From a virus, in the IMG/VR virus record IMGVR_UViG_3300020175_000005, positions 1-64,000 of that record: a stretch of DNA of 64,000 bases, one strand, 5' to 3'. Position numbers and translations under genes: made by a program. The notes beneath the pieces are model-generated. The model searched no databases. It had not been told where the DNA came from and was given only the letters and a program-made list of their open reading frames with translations. Of this stretch, positions 15,123-64,000 are shown piece by piece; the first letter of the stretch is position 1, and every line of letters starts with the position of its first letter.

Positions 15123-15764
15123 TTATGCTTTTATGACATCTTTTAGGCAAACGATGGTTTCAATTTTGATAGTAAATTTCTCGTTGAATCCCATCTTAAA
15201 TAAAAACATACCAGCTTCATTGTTTGTAAATATTGTAGGCATTGTTATCCAACTAGATGCAGTGGTATATGGCGTGACATTATAATATTGCGCACCGAAA
15301 TGTCCATTCATTCTGCTTTCTTTACCAGAAAATGTTTCATCTATAAACTCGAGAGCTCTTTCTGCATCATCAGTGGACGTATCAACATGCTTGTATGTTT
15401 TATATACCGACATTTTGTGCTTATATTGTCCATACCAGAGTTTTTCTCTTACAATGATCTGACGATCCTTGTCACGCAAATAATTGTAATGATCTTGATT
15501 TATCAATCCAACCACTGATTGAACGTGCATGCGCAAGTATACATCAGATAGAATATAATCGATTACTTCATGATTATTGGTGTATACCGTATTTGTTACT
15601 TTGGATCCATAAACATAGTGATTTACTATTCTAAATCCCGATAAATGCTTAGGTATATATGCTGGAGAATGATACGGAAATGGTCCTATTTTAAACGCAG
15701 TATGGTACTTTCCATAGTATAGTTTAGTTGCAGGGCTCCAATTCTTGTGCTCAACCTTTTTCAA
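15123..15764 (-). CDS. hypothetical protein
   Basis: 213-aa ORF with duplicated KL(Y/W)YG.Y motif. Confidence 0.7.
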   Translation of the reverse strand: MKKVEHKNWSPATKLYYGKYHTAFKIGPFPYHSPAYIPKHLSGFRIVNHYVYGSKVTNTVYTNNHEVIDYILSDVYLRMHVQSVVGLINQDHYNYLRDKDRQIIVREKLWYGQYKHKMSVYKTYKHVDTSTDDAERALEFIDETFSGKESRMNGHFGAQYYNVTPYTTASSWITMPTIFTNNEAGMFLFKMGFNEKFTIKIETIVCLKDVIKA

Positions 15765-25428: not shown

Positions 25429-25998
25429 TTAACCATCCCATAGTTGGTCGGCGTCTCTCCAGTCGCCCTGTACATAATTAATGATCACACTATATCTCAA
25501 GTCAGTAACAACTTCAGGCTTAACACCATGAATAATTTCGCCGCCTGCGTGAGTCATCCATCCAGTGTTGTTTACAAATGGAACAGTATAGAATTGTGTA
25601 TCCCAATCCTTGTATATTGTTGTACCCCAATTTGGTTCACCGTCACCCATATAAATTTGCAAAGTGATTAGTTTTTCAGGTATGTCGATGTGCTTGTCTA
25701 GATGACTTCCCAGATTATCCGCAACCAGTTCAACACGTAACTTCCCATGAGTACAGTCGACACCAGTAATATCAGTAAACAAGTCTTTTTTATTCAAATA
25801 TGGTTCAAAAACTGAACGGATGTCAGCTGAGCTATTCTTAGTAACAAATGTTCTAATCGAACTTGCATCTCCACGATTGCCATTGATATCAATCGGCGTT
25901 TGTGGAACATGATTCATAATAATTTGTTGTTCTTCTTGGTTGAAGACTTTTTTTACATGGAACCACTTGCCTGGCTCTGTGTGTAGATCAATCTGCAT
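25429..25998 (-). CDS. 2OG-Fe(II) oxygenase
   Basis: HxD (KHID), distal H (IHGV), R-x-S (RYS). Confidence 0.8.
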   Translation of the reverse strand: MQIDLHTEPGKWFHVKKVFNQEEQQIIMNHVPQTPIDINGNRGDASSIRTFVTKNSSADIRSVFEPYLNKKDLFTDITGVDCTHGKLRVELVADNLGSHLDKHIDIPEKLITLQIYMGDGEPNWGTTIYKDWDTQFYTVPFVNNTGWMTHAGGEIIHGVKPEVVTDLRYSVIINYVQGDWRDADQLWDG

Positions 25999-27202
25999 CG
26001 TTTTTTAAGCCTTCTGCTAGCAACGGCAAGTAATCATCAACATATCTTTCTCGATATTGATCTTGGGCTTTAGTGTATCTCTGTAACCTGTCATACATAA
26101 CGTCAACCGGCTCACGCTCAAGCATTGTCAAGCAATCGTTAATAACACGATGTTCATTGGGATCTGCAATTTTTTCATTTTCCAACAAGCGTTGAATATT
26201 TTCCTTGGCCACTTCTTTGAAGTTCGCTGGACAATTACGTGCCTGAAAATGTTGAGGTCCTACTAATACACGCATATTTACATGTCCGCGCCCGAAGTAT
26301 TTACTGACGTATTCATAAAACTCATATAGGTTATTTGCGTTGTATACCTGGAAGCTGCTGTTCACACTAACATAAAACCAAGTATGGTTTCTTTCTGCAT
26401 TTGCATATGATGCCAATTCTTCTACAAAGTTATCAAAGTCGTTCCATGAAAAAGCACCATCACTGCGCATGTACTCAAACAAGTCGCCGACTGCATCCAT
26501 ACTAAGATCAAAATTTAGCTTCTTGAATATTTTAAATCTATCAAGTTGTTTGATACTAACTTTACTGCCGTTAGTGGTAATACTAATACGAATCTTTGAC
26601 GGATCAGCATATTCTTCCAATAAGTCAATTGCACGCCAAATACTGTCACCCATAAATGGTTCGCCGCCTGTGATCCAAATACTTACAACATCTTTTAGTT
26701 TGTGTTTGTTTGCAAGTAAAAATTCTTCAACATTGTTGATATTTTTATGATTTTCTGGCTCATGCTTGTGCCATGGAAAATCGTTTTCTTGCAACCAGCG
26801 ATGCTCAGGTATTAAGCTATTACTGTATCTAGGACTGCACATACGACACTTAAAGTTGCAAACGTTGTTGAAGTTTAAGAATAGGTGCTTAATAGTATTG
26901 TCAGTGATTTGGGGATTATCCCATGCATCATCAGAAAAGTTTTTTCTTGCATCACCATAAAGCCAATTCTGGCGTTGACTTCTAACACCAGATTCTTCTT
27001 TCATCTTACAGTTAATACAGCCTTCGTCATCCCATTCTCCGCGAAGCATGTCTTTTCTTAATTTTTGGAAACTTGGATTATCCCAATCCAAATCTTCACG
27101 ATTAGACATATATTCTTCACTCATCATACAACGAGTCAAAGCACCAGTTGGGTGTAAACTCACTGCATTGAAAGGAATAGGACACCATGAGTCACTGTGC
27201 AT
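25988..27202 (-). CDS. radical SAM protein with N-terminal SPASM/twitch-like domain
   Basis: CNFKCRMC, TGGEPF, ITTNGS; start at MHSDSWCPIPF. Confidence 0.9.
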   Translation of the reverse strand: MHSDSWCPIPFNAVSLHPTGALTRCMMSEEYMSNREDLDWDNPSFQKLRKDMLRGEWDDEGCINCKMKEESGVRSQRQNWLYGDARKNFSDDAWDNPQITDNTIKHLFLNFNNVCNFKCRMCSPRYSNSLIPEHRWLQENDFPWHKHEPENHKNINNVEEFLLANKHKLKDVVSIWITGGEPFMGDSIWRAIDLLEEYADPSKIRISITTNGSKVSIKQLDRFKIFKKLNFDLSMDAVGDLFEYMRSDGAFSWNDFDNFVEELASYANAERNHTWFYVSVNSSFQVYNANNLYEFYEYVSKYFGRGHVNMRVLVGPQHFQARNCPANFKEVAKENIQRLLENEKIADPNEHRVINDCLTMLEREPVDVMYDRLQRYTKAQDQYRERYVDDYLPLLAEGLKNDAD

Positions 27203-27221
27203 GTTGCCTTTTTTTAAGTGA

Positions 27222-28076
27222 TCAGTCATTAGCGATTGATGCCTTGAACAAGTATCCACTGTGTACCCACATCTCTTGTCCTGTTTCGTTCTCCACAAAC
27301 CACCAAGTACCCTGGCGTTGAATGACTTCAACTTTACTATCTAGAGCGAGTTTATCTACGACATCAAATTTAGTACCTGGTCCGCTTCTTCCGTTAAGAT
27401 AGTTGGATACCTTGTGTACTTTCCAAACCCAATCAATATCAACATCATTACGACTGTTGTTAATCAAATCATAAACTCGTCCATCCATGCATGGTCCTGG
27501 ATCTGTTTTGCGTCCTGGTGCAATCATATCATGGCCCACTGCTTCCATAAGAGTGTACTCTGCCATCATCTCCTGCCCTACTGCAATAAGTGCATTAACC
27601 TGCTCAGGCGTAAAGGGAACCCACCCAAAAACTTGCCCGTTTGGATTGTTGGGGTGTGGTGCTTCAATAATGTTGGAGTCGTTAATTGTTTCTCCCCACC
27701 ATGCCTTGAAGTTTCCGTTTGCTGTTTTAGTAAGCGGACCTGGATTGCATACTTCAATACCAATTGAATGTTTATTGAGGTTTGTCATGCCTGCCCAACT
27801 ACTTTTGCCTGCATGCCATGCTTTGCGATCTAGTTCAACATTCTGTGCCCATGTGCCATCAGTATCCAAGCATAAATGCGCTGATGTTTTAGCTGACGGT
27901 TTTTGAAAATATTGAGCTGTGCCTTTTGCACTACTTTTACCTGCTGTATAGTGAATTACCAAAAACTTTGGTTCAATTTTGTCACCTTGGTTTGGTGTTG
28001 GATAAAAGTCTACCTGTTGCCAATCACCACCATCTTGGATAGTGTAGAGCAATCCGTTTTTAATTTTATATTCCAT
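27222..28076 (-). CDS. N-acetylmuramoyl-L-alanine amidase (endolysin) with C-terminal SH3b domain
   Basis: VIHYTA, SAH, AWHAG, SIGIE, GH..IAPGRKTDPG; C-terminal LNGRSGPGT..W..V.....WVH. Confidence 0.9.
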   Translation of the reverse strand: MEYKIKNGLLYTIQDGGDWQQVDFYPTPNQGDKIEPKFLVIHYTAGKSSAKGTAQYFQKPSAKTSAHLCLDTDGTWAQNVELDRKAWHAGKSSWAGMTNLNKHSIGIEVCNPGPLTKTANGNFKAWWGETINDSNIIEAPHPNNPNGQVFGWVPFTPEQVNALIAVGQEMMAEYTLMEAVGHDMIAPGRKTDPGPCMDGRVYDLINNSRNDVDIDWVWKVHKVSNYLNGRSGPGTKFDVVDKLALDSKVEVIQRQGTWWFVENETGQEMWVHSGYLFKASIAND

Positions 28077-41912: not shown

Positions 41913-42435
41913 TATTTTTTATCTTGGCACTTACTCGATTGCCAGCCCTGCTAATATTTTCTAATTCAACATCAATTAAGTTAGCAAATCTATGTAATAC
42001 TTCTATTGCTAAATGATGCTTTGCTCTCTCCCTGCCACGTAAGATAACAGTTAATGTAACTGTGGCTTGTTTTTCTAAAAACTTCTGAGCATGTTTCGCT
42101 TTGGTATTCAAGTCATTTAGATCAGTGTTGATACCTAATCGTATCTCTTTCTGTTCTGTCGCTGACTCCCGCTGACGTTTCTTTGATTCTTTAGCCTTTT
42201 GTTTTTGTTCATAAAGATACTTATTTAGGTCCACTATTTTACAAACTGGCGGATCTGCTTTTTCCACAATCAAAACCAAGTCAAGCTCTAATTGTTTAGC
42301 AAGAGCAAGTGCTTCTGTGGTCTTCATAATTTCGCTATTATCATCCCAATTGACACGTATCGTTGATTGCGTGATGTTTCTATTTGCTATAACCCTTGGG
42401 CCTTTATCCTTGGAATTATTATACTTATTACTCAA
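41896..42435 (-). CDS. infC: translation initiation factor IF-3
   Basis: N.NI....IRV, ALALA....LDLV....ADPPVCKIVDLNKYLYE, KEIRL, RGRE; TTG start. Confidence 0.9.
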   Translation of the reverse strand: MSNKYNNSKDKGPRVIANRNITQSTIRVNWDDNSEIMKTTEALALAKQLELDLVLIVEKADPPVCKIVDLNKYLYEQKQKAKESKKRQRESATEQKEIRLGINTDLNDLNTKAKHAQKFLEKQATVTLTVILRGRERAKHHLAIEVLHRFANLIDVELENISRAGNRVSAKIKNNVKTS

Positions 42436-43666
42436 TATTACTGCCTTTTTGCATGTGTGGTTTCTTACCTTTATTTATCACTTCGTCAGTAATTAACACA
42501 CTAGTAAACCCCCTGGCATGATTGTCGGGAAGATTATACTGTGTGTCCATTAGTGCATCGTCTAAAATTTTTCGTAATCCCCTAGCACCAAGACCTTGAT
42601 TAATCGCAATGTTAGCCACTGCCTTAACACTTTCTATTGTAAACTCTAAATTAAATTTGTCAAGTGCAAATAGAGCTTTATATTGTTCTACTAAGCTATT
42701 CTTGGGTTCTGTTAGTACTTTGACCAAGTCATCTTCAGTTAATTCACGCAATACACTTACACATGGAATTCTACCAACAAATTCTGGTATTAATCCGTAC
42801 TGTACTAAGTCTCGTGTTTCCAGGTGTTCTTCCCATTGGTGTTCACTTAGTGATTTGTCAGTAAATCCAATCTTACTTTTACCTAACCGTTGCATTACCT
42901 GATTGTCTAAACCAACAAATGCTCCACTTACAATAAACAAGATATCCTTGGTATTTATTTCTATAGTTTCTGGATTAGCTTGTGGCTTATTTGGTACCTT
43001 TACCACAGTGCCTTCCATTAACTTGAGTAAACTTTGCTGTACGCCTTCGCCACTCACATCTCTGCTCAGTGATACCATGTCGTTACGCTTTGCTTTTTTA
43101 TCAATCTCGTCTACATAGATAATACCAATTTGTGCTTTTTCAATATTATAATCAGCAGCTTGAACTAGGCGCTGGATTAGTACCTCAGCATCGTCCCCGG
43201 CATATCCACTCTCAGTAATAGTAGTTGCATCAGTAATAACAAACGGCACTTCCAGTACTTTACTTAGAGTTTGGGCAATCAAAGTTTTACCTACGCCTGT
43301 GGGTCCTAATAATAACAAGTTACTTTTTTGTATGTCAACATCACCATCATTTAATAATACCCGCTTGTAATGGTTATATACTGCTACGCTTACACCTTTT
43401 TTAACATGATCCTGACCAATTATATATTTGTTTAAATGCTCGTGTATTTTTGGAGGAGATATTCCACCAATATTTCGTTTAATATTATTAATAATTTTAG
43501 TTCGACTATGGCGGCGCCGCTTCTTTTCTAGAATGTCATGACTCAACCCAACACATTTATCACAAATATGTATCTGCGGCGATTCGCCTTGCAGTAACTG
43601 GCTTACTTCATCATTTGCTTTTCCACAAAAGTTGCAGTAGGGGTTATTGGATATCAGCTGGACCAT
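42428..43666 (-). CDS. clpX: ATP-dependent Clp protease ATPase subunit ClpX
   Basis: C4 zinc-binding domain (CNFC...CDKC), AVYNHYKR, GPTGVGKT, DEIDK, RDVSGEGVQQ, IGF loop, GARGLR. Confidence 0.95.
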   Translation of the reverse strand: MVQLISNNPYCNFCGKANDEVSQLLQGESPQIHICDKCVGLSHDILEKKRRRHSRTKIINNIKRNIGGISPPKIHEHLNKYIIGQDHVKKGVSVAVYNHYKRVLLNDGDVDIQKSNLLLLGPTGVGKTLIAQTLSKVLEVPFVITDATTITESGYAGDDAEVLIQRLVQAADYNIEKAQIGIIYVDEIDKKAKRNDMVSLSRDVSGEGVQQSLLKLMEGTVVKVPNKPQANPETIEINTKDILFIVSGAFVGLDNQVMQRLGKSKIGFTDKSLSEHQWEEHLETRDLVQYGLIPEFVGRIPCVSVLRELTEDDLVKVLTEPKNSLVEQYKALFALDKFNLEFTIESVKAVANIAINQGLGARGLRKILDDALMDTQYNLPDNHARGFTSVLITDEVINKGKKPHMQKGSNIE

Positions 43667-55029: not shown

Positions 55030-56382
55030 ATGGAAAAATTTATAGGTACTGAAACCCCATCTGAATTCATTAAACATAACTTGGTAGTAGGAATTCTTGC
55101 CAACAATCGTATCAAAGACCAAATAGCTGACGGATACTTGAAAAACCTAACTGAATTTTATACTCAGGAATTTTTCCTAGGAGGACTAACAGTAATATAC
55201 GGAGAAAATCCAGAAGACTTGATGGCTCAAACAAGCGAATTAGGAAAATCACATCTAGTTGCATTAAAGGTCGGTAATATCACTACATCTTTCCTAGACA
55301 CTCTCATTAACTTTTTTGAAAGGTTTTATGATGATGAAGTTTTAATTGGTCACATCTTAGACAGGGGAGATAGCTATTATGAGATACACCCGCAATTCTT
55401 CCTAATAGATATTAAATGGTGGGAAAGTGTTGGAAAACCAATGTTTGGTATTCGTAGACACAACACTGAGTGGGAAGCTACTATTCCCGAAAGAAGCAAT
55501 GACAATTGGCATGACGATTACACTCCTAAATGGATTAAAAATGGATCAACAAAAAGAACATATACCTCCAAAGAGTATGGCTGGAACATTATATCTCTTG
55601 CATTAGATAGTGGCAAAAAAGTAGGGGTATGGCAAAAGTATATGCGCGACAGTAAAAAATATCTTTATCCCGAAGTCGAAGAAGCATATGCAGGAAACAT
55701 TAATGAAGTTCTTAGATTGTTAGATACATCAAAGTTTTTTTGCTCAAATACCGAAGACATTCATGTTAGTGGAAACATTGTTGCAGATACAGTAATATGT
55801 ACCGCAGGTGGACCATCGCCAATTCTACATGCGTTTGCTTATAACATGAAATCTGGAGGAAACTTAGTAGTAGTAGATGTTAGTGAGCTTGCATTAAATA
55901 TTATGCAAGATATGTTTGCTACATGGGATGGCAGAGATTACCATAGTTGGCTAGAAGAATATAGAAAAAACTCTTCAGCAATTCGTGGTCGTATGATAGC
56001 ATTTGAAAGAGTGGAAAAGCAAAGTAAATGGATGGACGAAATTCCAGGTTTTGAAGAGTGGTATAATGAAGTTTGGCCGCATATCAATAAACAGTTCATT
56101 AAACAAAGTATTTTAGATGTTGACCAATTCACAAAACGCATTGATAGTTTTTTCCAACCTGATAATATAGTAGTAGTGCATACCAGTAATATTTTCCATT
56201 ATTTGCCAACTTCATTGTTTTACAACTATAATATAAGATGGCATTTGTTTTGGAAACTAAAAAATTATGTAACGAGAAAACAAGCTACTGTTGAAGGTCT
56301 AAAAGTTATTCAGAGAATACTGTTTAATGATCATCATAGAAAGATAATGGAGATTTTACCATGGTACAAGAAGATAGACTAG
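55030..56382 (+). CDS. hypothetical modification-cluster protein
   Basis: GHILDR..YYEIHPQF, HDDYTP.W; 450-aa ORF with AGGAG RBS. Confidence 0.75.
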   Translation: MEKFIGTETPSEFIKHNLVVGILANNRIKDQIADGYLKNLTEFYTQEFFLGGLTVIYGENPEDLMAQTSELGKSHLVALKVGNITTSFLDTLINFFERFYDDEVLIGHILDRGDSYYEIHPQFFLIDIKWWESVGKPMFGIRRHNTEWEATIPERSNDNWHDDYTPKWIKNGSTKRTYTSKEYGWNIISLALDSGKKVGVWQKYMRDSKKYLYPEVEEAYAGNINEVLRLLDTSKFFCSNTEDIHVSGNIVADTVICTAGGPSPILHAFAYNMKSGGNLVVVDVSELALNIMQDMFATWDGRDYHSWLEEYRKNSSAIRGRMIAFERVEKQSKWMDEIPGFEEWYNEVWPHINKQFIKQSILDVDQFTKRIDSFFQPDNIVVVHTSNIFHYLPTSLFYNYNIRWHLFWKLKNYVTRKQATVEGLKVIQRILFNDHHRKIMEILPWYKKID

Positions 56383-57110
56383 CAAAAGTTTTAGATTTCA
56401 TACAAGAATGCAAGCAACATAAACACTACGCATATATTGAGTCGCCGCCAGAAGCGTATAGTTATTGGAAAGAAATAAGACAAACACGACAGTTATATTT
56501 TAAATGGATCATGAAACACAGTAATTGTCCCAGTTTACGTTTGAGCATTGATATACCACACCGAGAAATACTAGCAGAAGCAGAAAATGCAAACGAATAC
56601 TTCGTAAAGCATCGTGGAAATAATCATCCTGGCTGGGAGAGTATGACATTGCATGGCCAAGGAATACATTATACCGACAACATAAAACAATATCCAGATG
56701 CGCCACAAGAATATAATTGGACTGAATTAACAAAATATTGTCCTATAACAACTGAGTGGTTCAAAGATGTGTGGCCTAATTCAGGCAATATGCAACGTGT
56801 TAGATTTATGATGCTGCGTCCTGGAGGTTGGATTACACCACATCAAGATTTAGATCGTCGAGAAATTAGTGCATTTAATATCGCTCTCAGCAATCCAGAA
56901 GGATGTGAATTTGCAATGGAAGATGCAAATATTATTCCTTGGAAACCAGGAGATGTTAGAGGGATTGATGTTGGGAGAAAGCACTGCGTATACAACGGAA
57001 GCAATCAGGATCGCATACATATGATTGTTCATGACAACTGGAGTCCAAACAAATATGACCTCGTTTGTCAAGCATATGATGACTTGTTAATAGAGAATAA
57101 CACTTTGTAA
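56361..57110 (+). CDS. aspartyl/asparaginyl beta-hydroxylase-like 2OG-Fe(II) oxygenase
   Basis: RVRFMML.PGG.I.PHQD, H.VYN.SN.DRIHMI. Confidence 0.85.
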   Translation: MVQEDRLAKVLDFIQECKQHKHYAYIESPPEAYSYWKEIRQTRQLYFKWIMKHSNCPSLRLSIDIPHREILAEAENANEYFVKHRGNNHPGWESMTLHGQGIHYTDNIKQYPDAPQEYNWTELTKYCPITTEWFKDVWPNSGNMQRVRFMMLRPGGWITPHQDLDRREISAFNIALSNPEGCEFAMEDANIIPWKPGDVRGIDVGRKHCVYNGSNQDRIHMIVHDNWSPNKYDLVCQAYDDLLIENNTL

Positions 57111-57111
57111 T

Positions 57112-57612
57112 GTGCGACTATTCTGTTGCTAGGTCAGTCGCCAACCCCCACGTGCTTAAATTAAGCCGCTAATGCCATTTCTGGCGCTTTATTTGCGTTT
57201 GCAATTAAAAAGTTTGTTCGCGGTAACGGCGCTTACATCCCGGTAACTCCACTCTTCTATCCTGCCTGTCGATCCTATTTCGACCCCATCATAAACACAC
57301 TATTCAAACCAAAGTAGGAAATCCATACTTCCTGTAATATTATATAATACGATTAGTATCATACAAAACCACAGTAGCCAAAATAACCAAAAGCCTAAAA
57401 ATCTGTACACCTTTTCCATAGGCAAATACTTTTCTAGAAGTGTAGTGATATCCCACACATATCTAAATTGTAGGAACCAACAAAACCATCTTACGTATTT
57501 GTTAGGTGTATTTTCTTTTGTTATCTTAGTCATTATTCCCTAATGTGTTTATGGTGGAGTCGCTGGGTACCGCCCCCAGGTCCAGTTCAGTCGTCAAATT
57601 GCTTCAACGTTA
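57112..57612 (-). ncRNA. ssrA: two-piece (circularly permuted) tmRNA
   Basis: Acceptor piece ...GGACCTGGGGGCGGTACCCAGCGACTCCACCA (CCA 57552-57554) precedes the coding piece GGGGTCGAAATAGGATCGAC (5' end 57287); G3-U70 pair; tag ANANKAPEMALAA* (57161-57202). Confidence 0.95.
57300..57533 (-). CDS. Trp-rich membrane protein inside the tmRNA intervening segment
   Basis: 77-aa ORF, AGGGA RBS, hydrophobic C-terminal half; stop codon lies in the closing stem. Confidence 0.65.
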   Translation of the reverse strand: MTKITKENTPNKYVRWFCWFLQFRYVWDITTLLEKYLPMEKVYRFLGFWLFWLLWFCMILIVLYNITGSMDFLLWFE

Positions 57613-57618
57613 CAATAC

Positions 57619-57626
57619 TATTTATA
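57619..57626 (-). promoter_or_regulatory. T4-like late promoter for the tmRNA
   Basis: TATAAATA just upstream of the acceptor piece; a TTGACA also lies at ~57644-57649. Confidence 0.7.
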
Positions 57627-57660
57627 ACATATGTATTCAGAGTTGTCAAGTATTAAATAA

Positions 57661-57686
57661 AAAAAGGGAGCATTAAGCTCCCCTTT
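57661..57686 (-). terminator. intrinsic terminator
   Basis: AAAGGGGAGC-TTAAT-GCTCCCTTTTT. Confidence 0.8.
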
Positions 57687-57710
57687 AATAATAACAATGT
57701 TATTGTTAGA

Positions 57711-58103
57711 TTAGAATGCGAATGATGCTGTAAGTGTAATCTCACCACGTTCTTCTGCTTCTAAGTCATATGATGTCACTGCTTCGATTGTAAGATCGTC
57801 ACGTAGTGCATATGAACCACCAAACTCTAGTACTGGAAGATGATCGAATTCGTCATCCATTGTAAAATCATTTGTGTTATCCCATACTGACAATTTAGTG
57901 CCTGTTGTTAGCTCTAGGCCGTCAACCTGTGGTACCACAAATGTTAGCTCTGGGTTGATTGTGATAATTGATGTATCAGCATCTACTTTACGTTCTGCTT
58001 TTACTTCTGTTTCTAGTGAGAAACCATTACCCAATTGTGTTTCAGCTTGTGCTGTGCCAGCCAAAAGTGTCGCTACAACTGTAGCTGCGAAAATATTTTT
58101 CAT
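57711..58103 (-). CDS. outer-membrane beta-barrel/porin-like protein
   Basis: Sec signal peptide (AQA cleavage), alternating beta-strands, C-terminal Phe (LTASFAF). Confidence 0.75.
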   Translation of the reverse strand: MKNIFAATVVATLLAGTAQAETQLGNGFSLETEVKAERKVDADTSIITINPELTFVVPQVDGLELTTGTKLSVWDNTNDFTMDDEFDHLPVLEFGGSYALRDDLTIEAVTSYDLEAEERGEITLTASFAF

Positions 58104-58266
58104 TTTTGTAAATCCTTATTAATAATGAAAACCGGCGCAAATCAACGCCGGTGCGGTATTATTTAATACTATAATACTTATCACTAATATAAGCTATAAT
58201 TAAAATTTTGCAAGTTATTCAGGAATTAATTATATATGTGTGTTAATTATGTTACAAAATATATTT

Positions 58267-58343
58267 TGGTCTCGGTGGTAGGATTCGAACCTACGGTCTC
58301 CTGGTCCCAAACCAGGCGCTTTACCATACTAAGCTACACCGAG
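58267..58343 (-). tRNA. tRNA-Pro (TGG)
   Basis: Loop TTTGGGA, C1-G72, CCA. Confidence 0.95.
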
Positions 58344-58349
58344 TAAACT

Positions 58350-58423
58350 TGGCAAAGGTGAGGAGAATCGAACTCCTGCTTCTGGTTTTGGAGACCAGCG
58401 TGATACCATTTCACTACACCCTC
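58350..58423 (-). tRNA. tRNA-Trp (CCA)
   Basis: Loop CTCCAAA, G73, CCA. Confidence 0.93.
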
Positions 58424-58432
58424 ATTTTTTAA

Positions 58433-58506
58433 AAACACACTAACCTCAATCCTTTCGGGATCTATGTTCTGCAAAACTTCCCATTGCAGTGGGACATAGT
58501 GTGCTT
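58433..58506 (-). ncRNA. stem-enclosed pseudoknotted RNA element
   Basis: AAGCACACTA/TAGTGTGTTT closing stem; internal CCCA/TGGG + CTGCAA/TTGCAG pseudoknot. Confidence 0.55.
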
Positions 58507-58508
58507 AT

Positions 58509-58542
58509 AAAAAAGCCCCTAATGAATTAACACTAGGGGCTT
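58509..58542 (-). terminator. attenuator terminator hairpin
   Basis: AAGCCCCTAGTG-TTAATT-CATTAGGGGCTTTTTT. Confidence 0.85.
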
Positions 58543-58572
58543 GCTTAAAATAACTTTTGTTAAAAAGTCACG

Positions 58573-58632
58573 TCAAAACATTCCCCAATCTCTTGGCGGC
58601 CAACAAGTAATATATGTTGTAGTATTTGACAT
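58573..58632 (-). CDS. leader peptide MSNTTTYITCWPPRDWGMF
   Basis: 19-aa ORF between promoter and terminator; GAGAG RBS; TGG-CCG-CCA..TGG codons. Confidence 0.7.
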   Translation of the reverse strand: MSNTTTYITCWPPRDWGMF

Positions 58633-58659
58633 GTTATTATCTCTCTTTGTTATACACTT

Positions 58660-58688
58660 AATATAGTACATGTTGTACCGAATGTCAA
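58660..58688 (-). promoter_or_regulatory. sigma70-like promoter of the leader/tRNA-Trp/tRNA-Pro unit
   Basis: TTGACA (58683-58688), 17 nt, TATATT (58660-58665). Confidence 0.85.
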
Positions 58689-58718
58689 GTGTTTTCTTAA
58701 AAATATTTATCTTTTATA

Positions 58719-58795
58719 TGGTAGAGACAAGTGGACTCGAACCACCGACCTTTCGCTTATCAGGCGAATGCTCTAACCAACTGAGCTATGTCTCT
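58719..58795 (-). tRNA. tRNA-Ile (GAT)
   Basis: Loop CTGATAA, CCA. Confidence 0.95.
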
Positions 58796-58799
58796 ATAA

Positions 58800-58874
58800 T
58801 GGCTGGAACGATAGGACTCGAACCTATACTCTGCGCTACCAAAAAGCGATGCATTACCATTATGCTACGTTCCA
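58800..58874 (-). tRNA. tRNA-Gln (TTG)
   Basis: Loop TTTTGGT, U1-A72, CCA. Confidence 0.93.
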
Positions 58875-58890
58875 TTACCATTATGATTTA

Positions 58891-58965
58891 TGGTACTCCC
58901 TAGGGGAATCGAACCCCTCTTTCCAGGTTGAAAACCTGGCGTCCTAACCGATAGACGAAGGGAGC
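58891..58965 (-). tRNA. tRNA-Glu (TTC)
   Basis: Loop TTTTCAA, CCA. Confidence 0.95.
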
Positions 58966-58977
58966 GTACTATAAAAA

Positions 58978-59054
58978 TGGCGCGGTTGACGGGACTCGAA
59001 CCCGCGACCCCCGGCGTGACAGGCCGGTACTCTAACCAACTGAGCTACAACCGC
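58978..59054 (-). tRNA. tRNA-Asp (GTC)
   Basis: Loop CTGTCAC, CCA. Confidence 0.95.
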
Positions 59055-59108
59055 TTTTAAACAATTTATAAACTAACGTAACACATTGTCTTTATTGTGT
59101 CAACAAAA

Positions 59109-59504
59109 TTATTTATCTTTTTTAATTAATGCACTTATATCATTTGTTGAACGTGCATGTTCTTGTCCAGTTAATTGATCAATTTCCACACTGCACTCTT
59201 TAACACATATAGCTGATGGATTGTCACTTTCCCAACCAGGATACCATATATAATCGTTATAAAACTCGTGGTTAACAATTTCGTCTAGTGTATAGTTATC
59301 CAAATTATTCCAATTCGGATCTTGATCGTGTGCTGCGATATATTTTTCATCATTTAGTAAGCGAGGTGGTTCATTTGCCTCATTAGCGAATCTCTTATCC
59401 CAAGCATTGGCAAAATAACAACAAGGCCAAAGTCTACCATCACTGGTAACTTCCCAATCTCTGGTAGAGCCGTTAATAGCCATACAATCAATCTTGCACT
59501 TCAT
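59109..59504 (-). CDS. standalone SPASM/twitch-domain protein
   Basis: C...VTSDGRLWPCCY...C...C; own RBS (CAGGA). Confidence 0.75.
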   Translation of the reverse strand: MKCKIDCMAINGSTRDWEVTSDGRLWPCCYFANAWDKRFANEANEPPRLLNDEKYIAAHDQDPNWNNLDNYTLDEIVNHEFYNDYIWYPGWESDNPSAICVKECSVEIDQLTGQEHARSTNDISALIKKDK

Positions 59505-60141
59505 AACCAGTATCCTGTAATAACTCGTAAACGTATTTTAAATTATTCTCTGATATCAATCCATATGATCGATTATTCAATTTAAGCCAGAGCCTTGCGT
59601 TTATTTGTTGTGCCATTTTAATAGCATCAGAGACTTGATGCCAATTCCATTCAAATATAATAAATTGCCAAGATCCGTGTCCTTGATTTGCAAACCATGC
59701 CGTCATGTTATCCATTGCACGTTGCCAATCAACGCCTTCACGATACATCCAGTTAGTGTCGTGATCAGTGCCGTCAACAGCAAAATGTATATAGAGCTTC
59801 CTAGGATATTTTTGTGATAGTTTATTATACCATTCAGGATTTCTTAATCCACCATTAGTATTGATACAAACGTTATCGGAATATTGCATAGCAACATCAA
59901 TAAAGTCTTCAATTTGTGGATGCATCATTGGATCCCCAAGCTCTCCACAAAAAACAATTTCATTAATTTTTAATGACGTGTTTTCAAGTCTCTTTTTGAA
60001 TACGTCCAGGTCCATATGCTGTAACTGAACCCAAGATTCTTTCTGGCCCGTGTCTTCGTTTGTCCTAGCACAGGATCGACATCTGGCTTGACAATGAGTA
60101 GTTATTGCAAAATCAAAGCTATGTTTAGTTATTTCAGTCAC
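59488..60141 (-). CDS. radical SAM domain protein (core only)
   Basis: CQARCRSC, GELGDP, NTNGGLR, FAVDG, YR; probable GTG start overlapping the upstream gene end. Confidence 0.85.
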   Translation of the reverse strand: MTEITKHSFDFAITTHCQARCRSCARTNEDTGQKESWVQLQHMDLDVFKKRLENTSLKINEIVFCGELGDPMMHPQIEDFIDVAMQYSDNVCINTNGGLRNPEWYNKLSQKYPRKLYIHFAVDGTDHDTNWMYREGVDWQRAMDNMTAWFANQGHGSWQFIIFEWNWHQVSDAIKMAQQINARLWLKLNNRSYGLISENNLKYVYELLQDTGYEVQD

Positions 60142-60583
60142 ACCAAGATTCTTTTTTATCACCATAATATTCACGGGCAAAGTTATTTTCAATTAGTAAA
60201 AGGCGTAAACTCACGCCATCAATAATAATATCACCTAATACTCTGCCGCCATATTTGTCCCAATTGTAAATTGCAACTTTGATAGTGGTAGCACTATCAA
60301 TTGCATCTTGTGTAAACTGACTTGCTGCTGCACCTAATATTTTTTCAGCATCACATTTGCCGCGCCAGGACTTTTCTGGAGTATCTACCCCGTATACTCG
60401 AATACTTAATTCCTGCTTTAGTGGCTCAGGCAAAAAATCAGCTTTGAATGCCACAGTGTCTCCGTCAATCACACGGGTGACTTCAAAATCATATTCTACC
60501 ATATCTGGCATATTTTCTTCGGCATAAACACTAGCTGTGCTGATTAATACAAGCATTATACTTGTTATTAGATTCTTAAACAT
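60134..60583 (-). CDS. secreted thermonuclease (SNase) family protein
   Basis: Signal peptide, RVIDGDTV, IRVYGVDTPE, DKYGGRVLG. Confidence 0.88.
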   Translation of the reverse strand: MFKNLITSIMLVLISTASVYAEENMPDMVEYDFEVTRVIDGDTVAFKADFLPEPLKQELSIRVYGVDTPEKSWRGKCDAEKILGAAASQFTQDAIDSATTIKVAIYNWDKYGGRVLGDIIIDGVSLRLLLIENNFAREYYGDKKESWCD

Positions 60584-60593
60584 TGGGGCTTCC

Positions 60594-61502
60594 TTAGATA
60601 TATTGCTTGAATATTCGATCAAACTGTTCTTTTTTACTATTGTATTTATCAATGTATATTTTTAAATTTTCTTCTAATACATTGCTATTACTTATTTCTA
60701 AATAATCCAGAATATACTCTGGACGATCGAACCAATCATCACCAACAACAATATGACTTTTATTTAATTTTTGATAAGTTTTTATAGTATAATTGATATC
60801 ATCTGCATCATTATCTTCTTGAAACTTTTTAAACAGCCTATCTGAATCGTCAGCCAATGTAATATCATTTGATCCATTTAATTGAGCATGATACAAATCC
60901 CAATGTGCAAAATTAAGTTGCCACATATACTTCAAAAGACCAGAATCAATTTGCTTGTGCATGTAGTCGTGATACTGATCATACCATACCTTTTTCCATT
61001 CACCAATGTTTGATCCATCCATAAGCATATGATCTTGCCACCACAAATTTGTGTGACTATCTACATGCTGGTGTGATATAGGGTTAAAGGCGTACTGGCT
61101 AATATAAAAAAACTGAAACTCTTGTGCTGAAGTATTGTTAATAATAGTTTTTTCAACATTTATTGCGGTGGAGGTATCTTTAAGGCATCCAAAATAATTA
61201 CTCCACACGCATATATTATAATCGTTTTCAATTTCATTAAATGGTGAAACGCAATCACTTATTTGATCTTCGGCATCCAAATTTTCCATGCGGCGAAGAG
61301 ATTCTTGATGCAAGTCGTAAACTCTTTTGGATACAATACTGTTACCCCTGTCTTCAATTATAATTCCACCAATGTTTTTATCATTATCTGATTGTCTCGA
61401 TTCGAATTCATATAACTGGGGACCAAATCTACTATCTGATGCTAGCCACCAGGCTATAGCAGGTGCGCTTCCATTTACTGAATTGTACACTGCTACTTTC
61501 AT
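60594..61502 (-). CDS. hypothetical protein
   Basis: 302-aa ORF, AGGA RBS. Confidence 0.7.
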   Translation of the reverse strand: MKVAVYNSVNGSAPAIAWWLASDSRFGPQLYEFESRQSDNDKNIGGIIIEDRGNSIVSKRVYDLHQESLRRMENLDAEDQISDCVSPFNEIENDYNICVWSNYFGCLKDTSTAINVEKTIINNTSAQEFQFFYISQYAFNPISHQHVDSHTNLWWQDHMLMDGSNIGEWKKVWYDQYHDYMHKQIDSGLLKYMWQLNFAHWDLYHAQLNGSNDITLADDSDRLFKKFQEDNDADDINYTIKTYQKLNKSHIVVGDDWFDRPEYILDYLEISNSNVLEENLKIYIDKYNSKKEQFDRIFKQYI

Positions 61503-61519
61503 TTTTTAGTCCTTTTGTA

Positions 61520-61594
61520 TGGAGCGGGTGAAGAGATTCGAACTCTCGACATTCTCGTTGGCAACGAGATGCTCTACCACTGAGCTACACCCGC
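61520..61594 (-). tRNA. tRNA-Gly (GCC)
   Basis: Loop TTGCCAA, U73, CCA. Confidence 0.95.
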
Positions 61595-61598
61595 ATCG

Positions 61599-61674
61599 TG
61601 GTGGGTAATAAGAGACTTGAACTCCTGACATCCTGCGTGTAAAGCAGGCGCTCTACCAACTGAGCTAATCACCC
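61599..61674 (-). tRNA. tRNA-Val (TAC)
   Basis: Loop TTTACAC, CCA. Confidence 0.95.
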
Positions 61675-61679
61675 TATTA

Positions 61680-61767
61680 TGGCGGAGAGACAGGGATTCG
61701 AACCCTGGGAACCTCGCAGTTCAACGGTTTTCAAGACCGCCGCATTCGACCACTCTGCCACCTCTCC
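61680..61767 (-). tRNA. tRNA-Ser (TGA)
   Basis: Loop CTTGAAA, variable arm, CCA. Confidence 0.95.
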
Positions 61768-61772
61768 TGTAT

Positions 61773-61848
61773 TGGCTCCTTGTGTTGGGCTCGAACCAAC
61801 GACCTACTGATTAACAGTCAGTTGCTCTACCAACTGAGCTAACAAGGA
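61773..61848 (-). tRNA. tRNA-Asn (GTT)
   Basis: Loop CTGTTAA, CCA. Confidence 0.95.
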
Positions 61849-61853
61849 ATATT

Positions 61854-62057
61854 TTACCTAGTAAAGTATTTAGTTAATACTTCTATTTGATCATCATACT
61901 CTGCGATGACTTTTAATTCTACTTCAATTGCTTCCAGGATATCGGAATGTTCTCCAATACCCACAGGGTTAGCTAAGTACACCTCAACATTTGCTTTGTG
62001 TTTAGCAATATGTCCTTGGGCATGCGCAATTGCAGCTTGGATTAGAGTCTCTCTCAT
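61854..62057 (-). CDS. conserved small phage protein
   Basis: HAQGHIAKHKANVEVYL.NPVGIGEHSDI.EAIE.EL. Confidence 0.8.
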   Translation of the reverse strand: MRETLIQAAIAHAQGHIAKHKANVEVYLANPVGIGEHSDILEAIEVELKVIAEYDDQIEVLTKYFTR

Positions 62058-62079
62058 ATCATATCTTTCTGTGATTAAA

Positions 62080-62220
62080 ATGAGAGCGTTTAACGTCTGC
62101 TCTCATAAGACGGCACGGGTTTGCCGGCATCATTCATTCAATTATTTCAAAAGAGGAATGAAACTCTTTACAGTCCTGATACCTAACCGTAGGTATTGGC
62201 GTGCTTATTAAGTAGCAACC
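62080..62220 (-). ncRNA. tandem H-type pseudoknot RNA
   Basis: Two textbook pseudoknots (62080-62112, 62133-62169) plus further hairpins. Confidence 0.6.
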
Positions 62221-62231
62221 CTTATTATAAT

Positions 62232-62307
62232 TGGTGGAGCGTATCGGGATCGAACCGATGACCCCCTGCTTGCAAAGCAGGTGCTCTCCCATCTGAGCTA
62301 ACGCCCC
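62232..62307 (-). tRNA. tRNA-Ala (TGC)
   Basis: G3-U70, loop TTTGCAA, CCA. Confidence 0.95.
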
Positions 62308-62439
62308 AATTAAAATTTACTCTTCTATGTCTTTCCTAACGTGTGTGGCTCGACACTGTCCATTTTAAATATTACCATATTGGTACGAGCTTCCTAATTA
62401 CTATATATCTATTTATGATATTAGTGTGTATATGCTAAC

Positions 62440-62640
62440 AGTTCAACGCTTTCGCTCCACGCTTCGCACTAACGACAAACACCTGCCGGCATACTTGCAT
62501 CGACCCTTTTGTTGTGACTGCGAACTCACTTCATCATATGGGACTTGGTAACCCATACTAGTTAGTGGCAAACTAACGTGTCCTTTAAACACCGAGCAGT
62601 TTTGGGACCTACTCAGGTCATCCTGGGCACCATTTGCTCA
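62440..62640 (-). ncRNA. candidate ~200-nt multi-pseudoknot ncRNA
   Basis: GC-rich non-coding spacer with about 6 hairpins and three complementary loop/downstream pairs. Confidence 0.6.
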
Positions 62641-62673
62641 ATTGTTTAACAAGGGGAACAAAACCCTTTAACT

Positions 62674-62758
62674 TGGTACGAGTAAGAGGACTTGAACCTC
62701 CACGCATTGCTGCACTAGAACCTAAATCTAGCGTGTCTACCAATTCCACCATACTCGC
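62674..62758 (-). tRNA. tRNA-Leu (TAG)
   Basis: Loop TTTAGGT, variable arm, CCA. Confidence 0.95.
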
Positions 62759-62761
62759 ACG

Positions 62762-62837
62762 TGGTGCCCCCACACGGACTCGAACCGCGGACCTACTGAT
62801 TACAAATCAGTTGCTCTACCAGCTGAGCTATAGGGGC
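62762..62837 (-). tRNA. tRNA-Thr (TGT)
   Basis: Loop TTTGTAA, CCA. Confidence 0.95.
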
Positions 62838-62840
62838 ATT

Positions 62841-63008
62841 AAACTACTTACTAGATGCGCCCTCAGTATCTCCAATCTCTCCGCACGGCCTTATTGACAT
62901 TGCCGCTCTAGTTCGACTGAAACTAGTAAAACTTGACATCTAAGCCTAACAGTTTTAGAGTTTTTAGCTGATCAACGCCTCTACACGGACGTATCTAGTA
63001 AGTAGTTT
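62841..63008 (-). ncRNA. 168-nt RNA enclosed by a long terminal stem
   Basis: AAACTACTTACTAGAT-A-CGTCC ... GGGCG-C-ATCTAGTAAGTAGTTT. Confidence 0.6.
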
Positions 63009-63020
63009 ATTCTTATTCAA

Positions 63021-63093
63021 TTGTCAAATAACGTGTTAATGTCTTTGCATCAACTTATGTATTCAATATAACGTATAATGATGTCGTTGTCAA
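63021..63093 (-). promoter_or_regulatory. tRNA-operon promoter with boxA-like element
   Basis: TTGACA-17-TATATT (63065-63093), then CGTTATTTGACAA (63021-63033). Confidence 0.6.
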
Positions 63094-63149
63094 CACCTTT
63101 TTTATTTTTCCTACGTTTTATTTATCCTTTTTATCTACGTAGATAATTA

Positions 63150-63674
63150 TTATTCTTGTATAGATGCAGATAGATTAATAATTACCGTTTGACCCTCATA
63201 AAATCTACGAGTAGTTTTTTGTGTAATTGTGGCACCACCATATTCTACAGTTGTGGTCCAGCCGCTTGCTACACTTCGTGTCTCGTTTACGTGGACTGTG
63301 CGACAACTTTCTTCCTGGCGGTAGCCAACAATTTCACGTCCGGGTTTTGCGCCTGATTTATCTGCACCAATAACACCACCTAATATTGCGCCGGCTGCTG
63401 CGCCGCCGTCGTTTCCACCAATTGCTTTACCGAGGATGCCGCCAATAATCATACCAGCTAGGGCGCCTTCACCAGCACTCCCTTTATTTTTAGAGTAGAT
63501 AGGTATATCTTTAATAGTACATTTTGTAGATGGTACTTTAACCGTTTTGTTATGATAATGAGGCACGCTGCTCAATACTGTTCCACGAACAGTAGTAGTG
63601 TTGTCATAACTTTCAGCATTGACGATAGATGTGGTCATCGCCACTGCTGTCATCGCTATCAAAAACTTTTTCAT
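63150..63674 (-). CDS. glycine-zipper 2TM (YcfJ-like) protein
   Basis: Signal peptide; GMIIGGILGKAIGG..G.AAAGAILGGVIG; paired Cys. Confidence 0.85.
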   Translation of the reverse strand: MKKFLIAMTAVAMTTSIVNAESYDNTTTVRGTVLSSVPHYHNKTVKVPSTKCTIKDIPIYSKNKGSAGEGALAGMIIGGILGKAIGGNDGGAAAGAILGGVIGADKSGAKPGREIVGYRQEESCRTVHVNETRSVASGWTTTVEYGGATITQKTTRRFYEGQTVIINLSASIQE

Positions 63675-63773
63675 CTTCTAACTTCCTTACTATATCTATT
63701 CCGAGTTCCCTATCTATATCAGACATGACTAGTTGCACACTGTGCATAAACCATTCATCTGATATATCATTTA

Positions 63774-64000
63774 TCATAGCAACTCTGGAAACATTCTCTT
63801 TACATAATTATTGACAATTACCTGGGTATCTCGATCCACTTGAGATATATTGCCTCTGGGGGCATCAACGCCTTGTGTTCGAATTTCACCCTTGGCTACA
63901 CGCAAAAGTTCACGCTTGTTTAGTTCTTGTACTTGATCTAAGGTGACTTGTCGTTGAGCGATTGCACTTATAATATATTCGGATACATCGCCGTGAGTCA
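63774..64000 (-). CDS. hypothetical protein (start at or beyond the window end)
   Basis: Open frame ..THGDVSEYIISAIAQ...YVKRMFPELL*. Confidence 0.5.
   Translation of the reverse strand, partial: THGDVSEYIISAIAQRQVTLDQVQELNKRELLRVAKGEIRTQGVDAPRGNISQVDRDTQVIVNNYVKRMFPELL

Follow-up and report, generated by a model that had tools for sequence, protein, structure and literature searches.

In the enterobacterial trpL attenuator, a short open reading frame (ORF) with two Trp codons, placed some 7-8 codons before the stop codon, precedes an intrinsic terminator, and segments of the leader RNA can pair in alternative ways (1:2, 2:3 and 3:4). The position of the stop codon lets a terminating ribosome block the antiterminator, and in the E. 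coli trp leader the choice between the folds is kinetic, the terminator being more stable than the antiterminator. Its cargo are biosynthetic enzymes. In the pheM-pheST attenuator of E. coli, a leader peptide rich in Phe codons controls phenylalanyl-tRNA synthetase, and in the multivalent enterobacterial leaders thrL and ilvL different codons of one leader report on several products. T-box riboswitches also sense the state of a specific transfer RNA (tRNA) and choose between a terminator and an antiterminator, but they bind the tRNA directly, do without an ORF and control synthetase or biosynthesis genes. Here we describe a putative attenuator of this general kind that precedes the tRNA-Trp gene of an uncultured giant phage. 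It lies in a stretch of 64,000 nucleotides (nt) of viral DNA (positions 1 to 64,000 of IMG/VR record IMGVR_UViG_3300020175_000005), which is called the window below.

Comparative sequence analysis and RNA folding, on which the evidence rests throughout, point to a trpL-type leader-peptide transcription attenuator, kinetically decided, that would feed back on the supply of the same tRNA-Trp that it senses, with a tRNA-Pro riding behind. The probability of this reading is, in our estimate, about 0.74. What the computations establish is the anatomy of the locus, its association with tRNA-Trp throughout the family, the invariance of UGG, the conservation of frame and ribosome-binding sequence, and the covariation of the terminated fold.

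As predicted here, the phage locus shares with trpL all the properties listed above except that one UGG codon is conserved in its leader instead of two, and that the phage-encoded cargo is a tRNA gene. In addition, the start and stop codons are both buried in its 1:2 element, which has the form of a three-way junction, the strand with the Pro codons (in helix P3) sequesters part of the antiterminator arm, and a conserved hairpin, hairpin C, serves as the antiterminator tip. The module has no sequence or Rfam similarity to trpL: a cmscan search of positions 56000-64000 (E <= 1) against Rfam, including Trp_leader (RF00513), gave no match within 58509-58655. Like pheM-pheST, the phage leader would read the supply of one charged tRNA and control a translation component for the same amino acid; in pheM-pheST, however, the synthetase and not the tRNA is regulated, the system is cellular and there are several regulatory codons. 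The likeness to thrL and ilvL is statistical only, in that the codon 5' of UGG matches a tRNA of the downstream array in 15/36 types. Of the published systems that we found in which accessory tRNA genes are regulated, the trn operon of Anabaena (PMC8421152, PMC10272220) comes nearest; its extra tRNA genes are silent and are switched on under translational stress. There, in contrast, control is exerted by the transcriptional repressor TrcR (PMC10272220), and the operon is cellular and located on a megaplasmid. In the literature searched, leader-peptide attenuation was found for amino-acid biosynthesis and synthetase genes and for no tRNA genes, and tRNA genes go unmentioned as cargo in a survey of premature terminators across a genome (PMC2965389). 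The locus would then represent a known mechanism acting on a cargo, tRNA genes, for which we found no published report.

The family of the module was collected from phage contigs of IMG/VR. A 20-mer from the ORF matched 5 contigs and a 22-mer from the tRNA 26 contigs, while a hairpin-C pattern, which lies outside both ORF and tRNA, matched 46 viral contigs and a looser version of it 61; the pooled total was 64 modules. Sufficient DNA downstream was available for 63 modules, and in all 63 the terminator is followed first by tRNA-Trp(CCA), represented by 27 distinct tRNA-Trp sequences. The second gene in these 63 modules varies: it is tRNA-Pro in 21, tRNA-Gly in 11 and tRNA-Cys in five, and otherwise Met, His, Tyr, Gln, Lys or none. 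The upstream neighbours vary too and may be tRNAs, protein genes or terminators. Conservation in 64 family members, all preceding tRNA-Trp, excludes chance as the origin of these elements. Among the 22-mer matches, the leader is present throughout one tRNA-Trp lineage and absent throughout a second, which is found in other phages; a covariance model of the leader gave no match before the second lineage. When about 248 tRNA genes were scanned (the loci collected and the whole 98.5-kb genome), the order promoter, ORF, terminator, tRNA was found for tRNA-Trp only, and the other tRNAs showed the ordinary order of gene terminator, promoter and tRNA. No minus-strand terminator was found before the other two tRNA blocks of the window.

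The elements of the module and the folds discussed below are listed in Table 1. The promoter, the 19-codon ORF, the terminator and the two tRNA genes reported in a preliminary description of this DNA, made from its letters only, were all recovered at these positions.

Table 1. Features of the tRNA-Trp module and its predicted RNA folds in the window
Feature	Position	Strand	Details
Sigma-70-type promoter TTGACA-17-TATATT	58660-58688	-	11/12 consensus positions; predicted start near 58653
Shine-Dalgarno-like AGAGAG	58641-58646	-	Read from sequence; 8 nt 5' of ATG
Leader ORF MSNTTTYITCWPPRDWGMF	58573-58632	-	19 codons + UGA; ATG at 58632, TGA at 58575-58573
Regulatory Trp codon UGG (codon 11)	58600-58602	-	At 3' end of helix P2
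Pro codons CCG CCA	58594-58599	-	Also 5' strand of helix P3, pairing with GGGG in the predicted fold of minimum free energy
Anti-antiterminator domain (predicted three-way junction)	58569-58633	-	-17.0 kcal/mol
Helix P1	58633-58622 with 58579-58569	-	Joins start-codon to stop-codon region
Helix P2	58619-58615 with 58605-58601	-	3' strand ends in UGG; U and first G paired
Helix P3	58599-58593 with 58588-58583	-	CCGCCA (Pro codons) pairs with UUGGGG
Hairpin C, GUGACUUUU / AAAAGUUAU	58550-58571	-	Tip of antiterminator; invariant UUUUA follows; possible pause hairpin
Antiterminator (predicted)	58536-58586	-	GGGG-AA-UGUUU-U-GA + hairpin C + UU-UUAAGCA-AG-CCCC; extends to 58593/58530 with UGG in A site
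Intrinsic terminator	58509-58542	-	12-bp stem (58542-58513, 6 G-C pairs), UUAAUU loop, six U; hairpin -19.5 kcal/mol
Structured spacer, terminator to tRNA-Trp	58424-58508	-	85 nt; closing helix ACACU...AGUGU (predicted fold)
tRNA-Trp (anticodon CCA)	58350-58423	-	ARAGORN + Rfam; constant cargo of module
tRNA-Pro (anticodon TGG)	58267-58343	-	ARAGORN + Rfam; 6 nt behind tRNA-Trp; co-transcribed variable cargo

The family contains 31 distinct leader peptides of 18-22 amino acids, and UGG stands at codon 11 or 12 in every one of them (31/31). The ATG is invariant, the Shine-Dalgarno (SD) sequence, mostly AAGGA, lies at a constant distance from it (AAGGA or GGAA in most relatives), and the stop codon, UGA or UAG, falls at the same structural place; the ORF is probably translated. 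The ORF frame is open in 36/36 distinct family sequences, compared with 22/36 and 13/36 for the other two frames. The ORF lengths differ by whole codons, and single-base differences in length occur just after the stop codon and around hairpin C. In the window the ORF can also be read as part of a frame of 32 amino acids, the extra ATG of which lies inside the promoter spacer. Most lineages read ..T-x-Y/N-I-T-C-W-P-P.., and the L008 group (MLHTFGTDNYGWCSKEGMF), L054 (MTLLTGTCYPWGPSGDTEGFVM), L089 and L098 have essentially only the Trp in common with the window peptide. The second Trp codon of the leader (W16), to which the preliminary description had also drawn attention, is not conserved in the family. 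In locus L039 (9487-9620, minus strand) the frame is shifted after WPP (…WPPCLGNVLM) and the stop codon is found 5 nt further on, inside hairpin C; it thus appears that the peptide after the Pro codons is not constrained.

The minimum free energy (MFE) structure of the 156-nt leader, calculated with RNAfold (-41 kcal/mol, z = -4.2; 0/200 shuffles fold as well), is a three-way junction followed by hairpin C and then by the terminator. In the MAFFT alignment of 33 unique sequences 89% of the cells of this terminated fold are paired and 14 pairs have changed on both sides; this level of pairing was reached by 0/500 shuffles, and controls with a slid structure gave 31-55%. A model-based alignment of 39 sequences, which was fitted to this structure and so favours it, gave 88.5% pairing and 19 double-change pairs (0/500 shuffles as high; slid controls 38-52%). 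In the latter alignment pairing reaches 90% in P1 and 88% in P2, where four of the five pairs covary; the P3 pairs are 86-95% kept across both alignments, and 9/12 pairs of the terminator stem covary in the family. The anti-antiterminator helices P1 (90% paired) and P3 (86%), again with covariation, occupy the 5' arm of the antiterminator, and the terminator, a 12-bp stem followed by U6, lies between the leader ORF and tRNA-Trp. The segment AAGUUAUUUUA (58547-58558), which comprises the 3' strand of hairpin C and the U-run, is invariant in all members, far beyond what pairing needs, and the length of the hairpin C stem varies. RNA polymerase may pause at this segment, which would keep polymerase and ribosome in step.

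The alternative fold was approached by nascent-RNA folding, with the ribosome placed on UGG and the transcript ended before the 3' arm of the terminator. The nascent MFE structure was one long antiterminator helix in 33/33 unique sequences, with energies of -14 to -25 kcal/mol (UGG in the P site) compared with -14 to -18 kcal/mol for the terminators. In this helix the 3' end of the ORF, GGGG(A/U)AUGUYUUGA, pairs with UUUUARNNAAGCCCC(UAG), hairpin C being the tip. With UGG in the A site the window antiterminator is longest and covers 7/10 arm bases; with the ribosome at the stop codon it cannot form. The 3' strands of P1 and P3 make up the 5' arm of the antiterminator, and its 3' arm takes 4-8 nt of the 5' arm of the terminator. 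Divergent lineages have the same complementarity in other letters, e.g., GAGGGCAUGUUCUAG / UAGACAUGGCCCUC in L008. In the alignment that was not fitted to the antiterminator, 82% of the antiterminator-specific pairs are kept, against 34-61% in slid controls, and one of these pairs switches between U-A (12) and C-G (10). After shuffling of the 5' arm, the energy of the antiterminator corresponded to z = -1 to -3.5.

These results agree with the structural part of the preliminary description. Its ATGTCAAA/TTTGACGT helix, CCAA-GAGA-TTGG hairpin, inner hairpin and terminator are all present in the MFE fold, and its antiterminator, GGGG-AA-UGUUU/AAGCA-AG-CCCC around GUGACUUUU/AAAAGUUAU, is the nascent MFE structure once the ribosome sits on UGG. 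The 1:2/2:3/3:4 logic it had proposed is real, judged by the shared arms of the predicted folds, and the stem covariation it had suggested looking for in related phages is found in the 19 covarying pairs of the terminated fold.

The core of the attenuator reading, namely that the leader Trp codon governs the choice between terminator and antiterminator before tRNA-Trp, is supported by these comparisons. We infer in addition that the leader is translated, that ribosomes stall in it, that the choice of fold is kinetic and that a physiological shortage acts as the trigger. The mechanism would be as follows. Transcription would start at the promoter at 58688-58660 or read in from the upstream tRNA block, and a ribosome would load onto the SD sequence and AUG as both emerge from the polymerase. 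With plentiful Trp-tRNA(Trp) the ribosome would reach the UGA, situated in the 3' strand of P1 immediately ahead of hairpin C, and would cover the 5' arm of the antiterminator; the terminator would form and a leader RNA of ~145 nt would be released. If the leader were not translated, P1 and P3 would hold the 5' arm of the antiterminator, and the terminator would form too. A ribosome waiting at UGG with an empty A site would instead melt P2 and P3 and free the G-run, which starts 16 nt downstream of the first UGG base, immediately beyond the edge of the waiting ribosome. The freed G-run and the next bases would pair with UUAAGCA-AG-CCCC(UAG), with hairpin C as the tip, and the antiterminator so formed would take 4-8 nt of the 5' arm of the terminator, including the G-C pairs beside the U-run. 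The polymerase would then read into tRNA-Trp and tRNA-Pro. Since the tRNA-Trp produced would relieve the Trp-decoding signal, the circuit would amount to a negative-feedback control of supply. The sensor codon and the product would be the two halves of one decoding event, so that the circuit would measure the speed of UGG decoding and correct it directly.

The module has its own promoter (>=10/12 consensus positions, that is, at least 10 of 12) in 38/41 distinct upstream regions of the family, ending 24-37 nt before the ATG. As to a promoter of the tRNAs downstream of the terminator, which the preliminary description had named as contrary to its proposal, no match of at least 9/12 was found in the spacer, and short-spacer relatives have no room for one. 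The 85-nt spacer is itself optional: about half of the family lacks it, and the tRNA then starts 3-20 nt after the U-run, which leaves no space for a separate promoter and only terminator read-through to make the tRNA. An internal promoter TTGACG-18-TATTTT (58576-58547) was also considered. It coincides with hairpin C, and as this hairpin differs in length by as much as 8 nt among family members, the promoter spacing is not kept and the candidate was rejected. Some family members have a different insert inside the same ACACU...AGUGU closing helix. L029/L030/L045, L010, L008 and L028 are among the loci that show this variation of the spacer. In L043 and L059 the spacer between terminator and tRNA-Trp contains a second small ORF with its own SD sequence (GGAGAAAGGA); its product, MTDSEYWRWMKSQVE, has two Trp codons, and no terminator lies behind this ORF.

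Several points weigh against the attenuator reading. Each leader has a single conserved regulatory codon, and one such codon should give low sensitivity in the model of Elf and Ehrenberg (PMC1183508). The family members come from related phages, and the family counts are not independent events. Covariation of the antiterminator is modest, with three clean double-change pairs and register shifts between lineages, and the number of terminator-arm bases that it captures is not above the expectation from arm shuffles, as any G-rich arm finds CCCC. In the window copy no more than 4-7 nt are common to the antiterminator and the terminator, and when UGG occupies the P site strict competition is limited to the four G-C pairs beside the U-run. 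The terminator is the favoured state at equilibrium (-27.5 vs -18.3 kcal/mol in the window copy); this and the small overlap imply that the switch must be kinetic, and strand displacement could blunt a kinetic switch. Finally, P1 hides the AUG in the completed leader, which means that translation must start co-transcriptionally.

The same switch might be set by the peptide instead of by the codon. In such an arrest-peptide switch the nascent NTTYITC-W-PP would stall the ribosome at the slow W-P-P bonds and the choice between terminator and antiterminator would be unchanged, the signal being something other than the supply of Trp-tRNA, for instance the activity of EF-P, free tryptophan (as with TnaC) or a general stress on translation. 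T-x-Y/N-I-T-C/N/Y-W-P-P is indeed conserved in most lineages, the P2 loop encoding Y-I-T is conserved beyond pairing needs, and in the window the antiterminator arm stays free when Pro codons fill the P and A sites; moreover, FxxYxIWPPP and RxPP are reported to stall elongation in E. coli (PMC7897499, which cites Tanner et al. and Woolstenhulme et al.). However, the conserved peptide columns overlap with RNA helices. On either side of the P2 loop the residues follow RNA pairing and not peptide similarity (T..C, V..Y, I..N), and CCNCC is accounted for by helix P3. NTTYITCWPP is absent in L008 (…NYGWCSKEGMF), L054 (…CYPWGPSG…), L089 (…LLCWCPTT…) and L098, in which the switch is kept, and L008, L054, L089 and the WPS/WPL variants, without PP or the upstream motif, still have UGG, the folds and tRNA-Trp. 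That divergent lineages keep essentially only the Trp favours a codon sensor over a specific arrest peptide. Where the spacer is short, the G-run is covered by a ribosome on PP, and the antiterminator then reaches only -9 to -11 kcal/mol. An arrest peptide also gives no reason for the cargo always being tRNA-Trp, and we regard this explanation as improbable.

Two further explanations dispense with the leader codon as the sensor of a translating ribosome. The promoter, leader and terminator form a self-contained, highly structured unit of ~145 nt, which could be an independent small gene or small RNA that acts in trans, the tRNA being made by constitutive leak-through; trans-acting products of attenuators, the RNA rnTrpL and the peptide peTrpL, are described for Sinorhizobium (PMC6614838, PMC7298713). 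The 63/63 link to tRNA-Trp, with 27 tRNA sequences in many neighbourhoods, would be unexpected for an unrelated neighbour, though, and so would an invariant UGG that matches the anticodon of the cargo. Such a unit would also have no role for the complementarity that links the end of the ORF to the arm of the terminator and is kept through register shifts. A role in trans could accompany attenuation instead of competing with it, and we think a separate unit even less probable than an arrest peptide. Least credible of all is a T-box-like untranslated sensor that would bind tRNA-Trp by pairing of UGG with the anticodon and switch the terminator without a ribosome. The strongly conserved three-way junction is in keeping with it, and UGG is followed by C, so that UGGC could in principle, by sequence, pair with the GCCA 3' end of the tRNA. 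Yet no T-box or other Rfam family matched at E <= 1, the first two bases of UGG take part in P2 and are not exposed in a loop, and the domain of ~65 nt is far smaller than a T-box Stem I with its antiterminator. The conserved SD sequence, ATG, in-frame stop and open frame, with whole-codon length differences except in the L039 tail, speak instead for a translatable ORF.

Within the attenuator reading, the part played by proline has to be considered separately. The preliminary description had presented the leader as sensing both Trp and Pro. The 63/63 link to tRNA-Trp and the invariant UGG bear out the former, while the Pro codons do not follow tRNA-Pro: many leaders with no tRNA-Pro in the downstream array retain WPP, and the residues at +1 and +2 of the Trp match the downstream tRNAs 28 times in 36 leader/array types, with 26 expected from shuffled pairings (p = 0.24). 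The residue just before the Trp (C, Y or G) matches a tRNA of the array in 15/36 types, compared with 6.2 expected (p < 1e-4, in a statistic that ignores phylogeny). The suggestion that leader codons change with the downstream tRNAs thus holds for the codon 5' of UGG and fails for the Pro codons. In the window the residue before the Trp is Cys, and there is no tRNA-Cys downstream. Because CCNCC pairs with GGGG in P3, an RNA constraint alone can explain why WPP is kept; as modelled, CCNCC, the 5' strand of P3, would mimic the CCCC of the terminator and hold the G-run of the antiterminator until the ribosome melts P3. In constrained folding a ribosome on the Pro codons of the window leaves the G-run arm free, and Pro sensing is possible in the window copy, where tRNA-Pro would be co-transcribed. 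A broader and rather doubtful proposal is that the module is a programmable supply sensor, in which the few codons around UGG where a stalled ribosome leaves the antiterminator free are rewritten in evolution to match the tRNAs behind the terminator (Cys, Tyr, Gly and here perhaps Pro), and giant phages make accessory tRNAs on demand. Possible triggers would be a codon demand of the phage beyond what the tRNA pool of the host supplies, or cleavage or depletion of those tRNAs by a host defence. The response to a host anticodon nuclease that the preliminary description had suggested is a conjecture.

Further observations concern the surroundings of the module and its distribution. A tRNA-Asp/Glu/Gln/Ile block lies directly upstream and ends at 58719. 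A promoter of the same type, TTGACA-17-TATATT, also precedes the tRNA-Thr block (63065-63093, minus strand), where it is followed by a leader of ~170 nt without a terminator. About 600 nt downstream of tRNA-Pro there is an alphaproteobacterial-type permuted (two-piece) transfer-messenger RNA (57111-57653, minus strand; alpha_tmRNA 108 bits, tmRNA_permuted 95 bits), which hints at an alphaproteobacterial host. The phage also encodes a ClpA/ClpB-like double AAA+ ATPase, a zinc-finger ClpX-like protein and a radical SAM protein (loci 15751-18039, 42428-43666 and 25988-27331 (-)). For a structural protein the only relatives found were from jumbo phages of the PA5oct type and distant (27% identity), and such phages are the closest cultured relatives of this one. 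A blastn search of the tRNA-Trp locus against known phages matched the tRNAs and nothing else. The narrow hairpin-C pattern gave 0 matches in 185,579 bacterial genomes, and the loose one gave 28, none of them with the module; such patterns reach close sequence relatives only. The Flavobacteriaceae among the loose matches (L064, L067, L069, L073, L078, L080, L084, L086, L087) represent one conserved protein-coding stretch, GGTGACGAAGTTATTTTACC.TGCCC, which, from its translation judged by eye, we take to resemble an aminotransferase motif. No tRNA or terminator is nearby, and these matches are due to chance and give no clue to the host.

If the attenuator reading is true, the module would be a compact part of ~145 nt that reports the in vivo availability of a single charged tRNA, and the 64 natural variants would be a ready-made mutational series for testing the attenuator model. 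For the phages themselves it would mean that some phage tRNA genes are regulated by demand and not constitutive. It would also bear on the question of why phages carry tRNAs, whether for the sake of codon usage or as a buffer against host shut-off and defences aimed at tRNAs.

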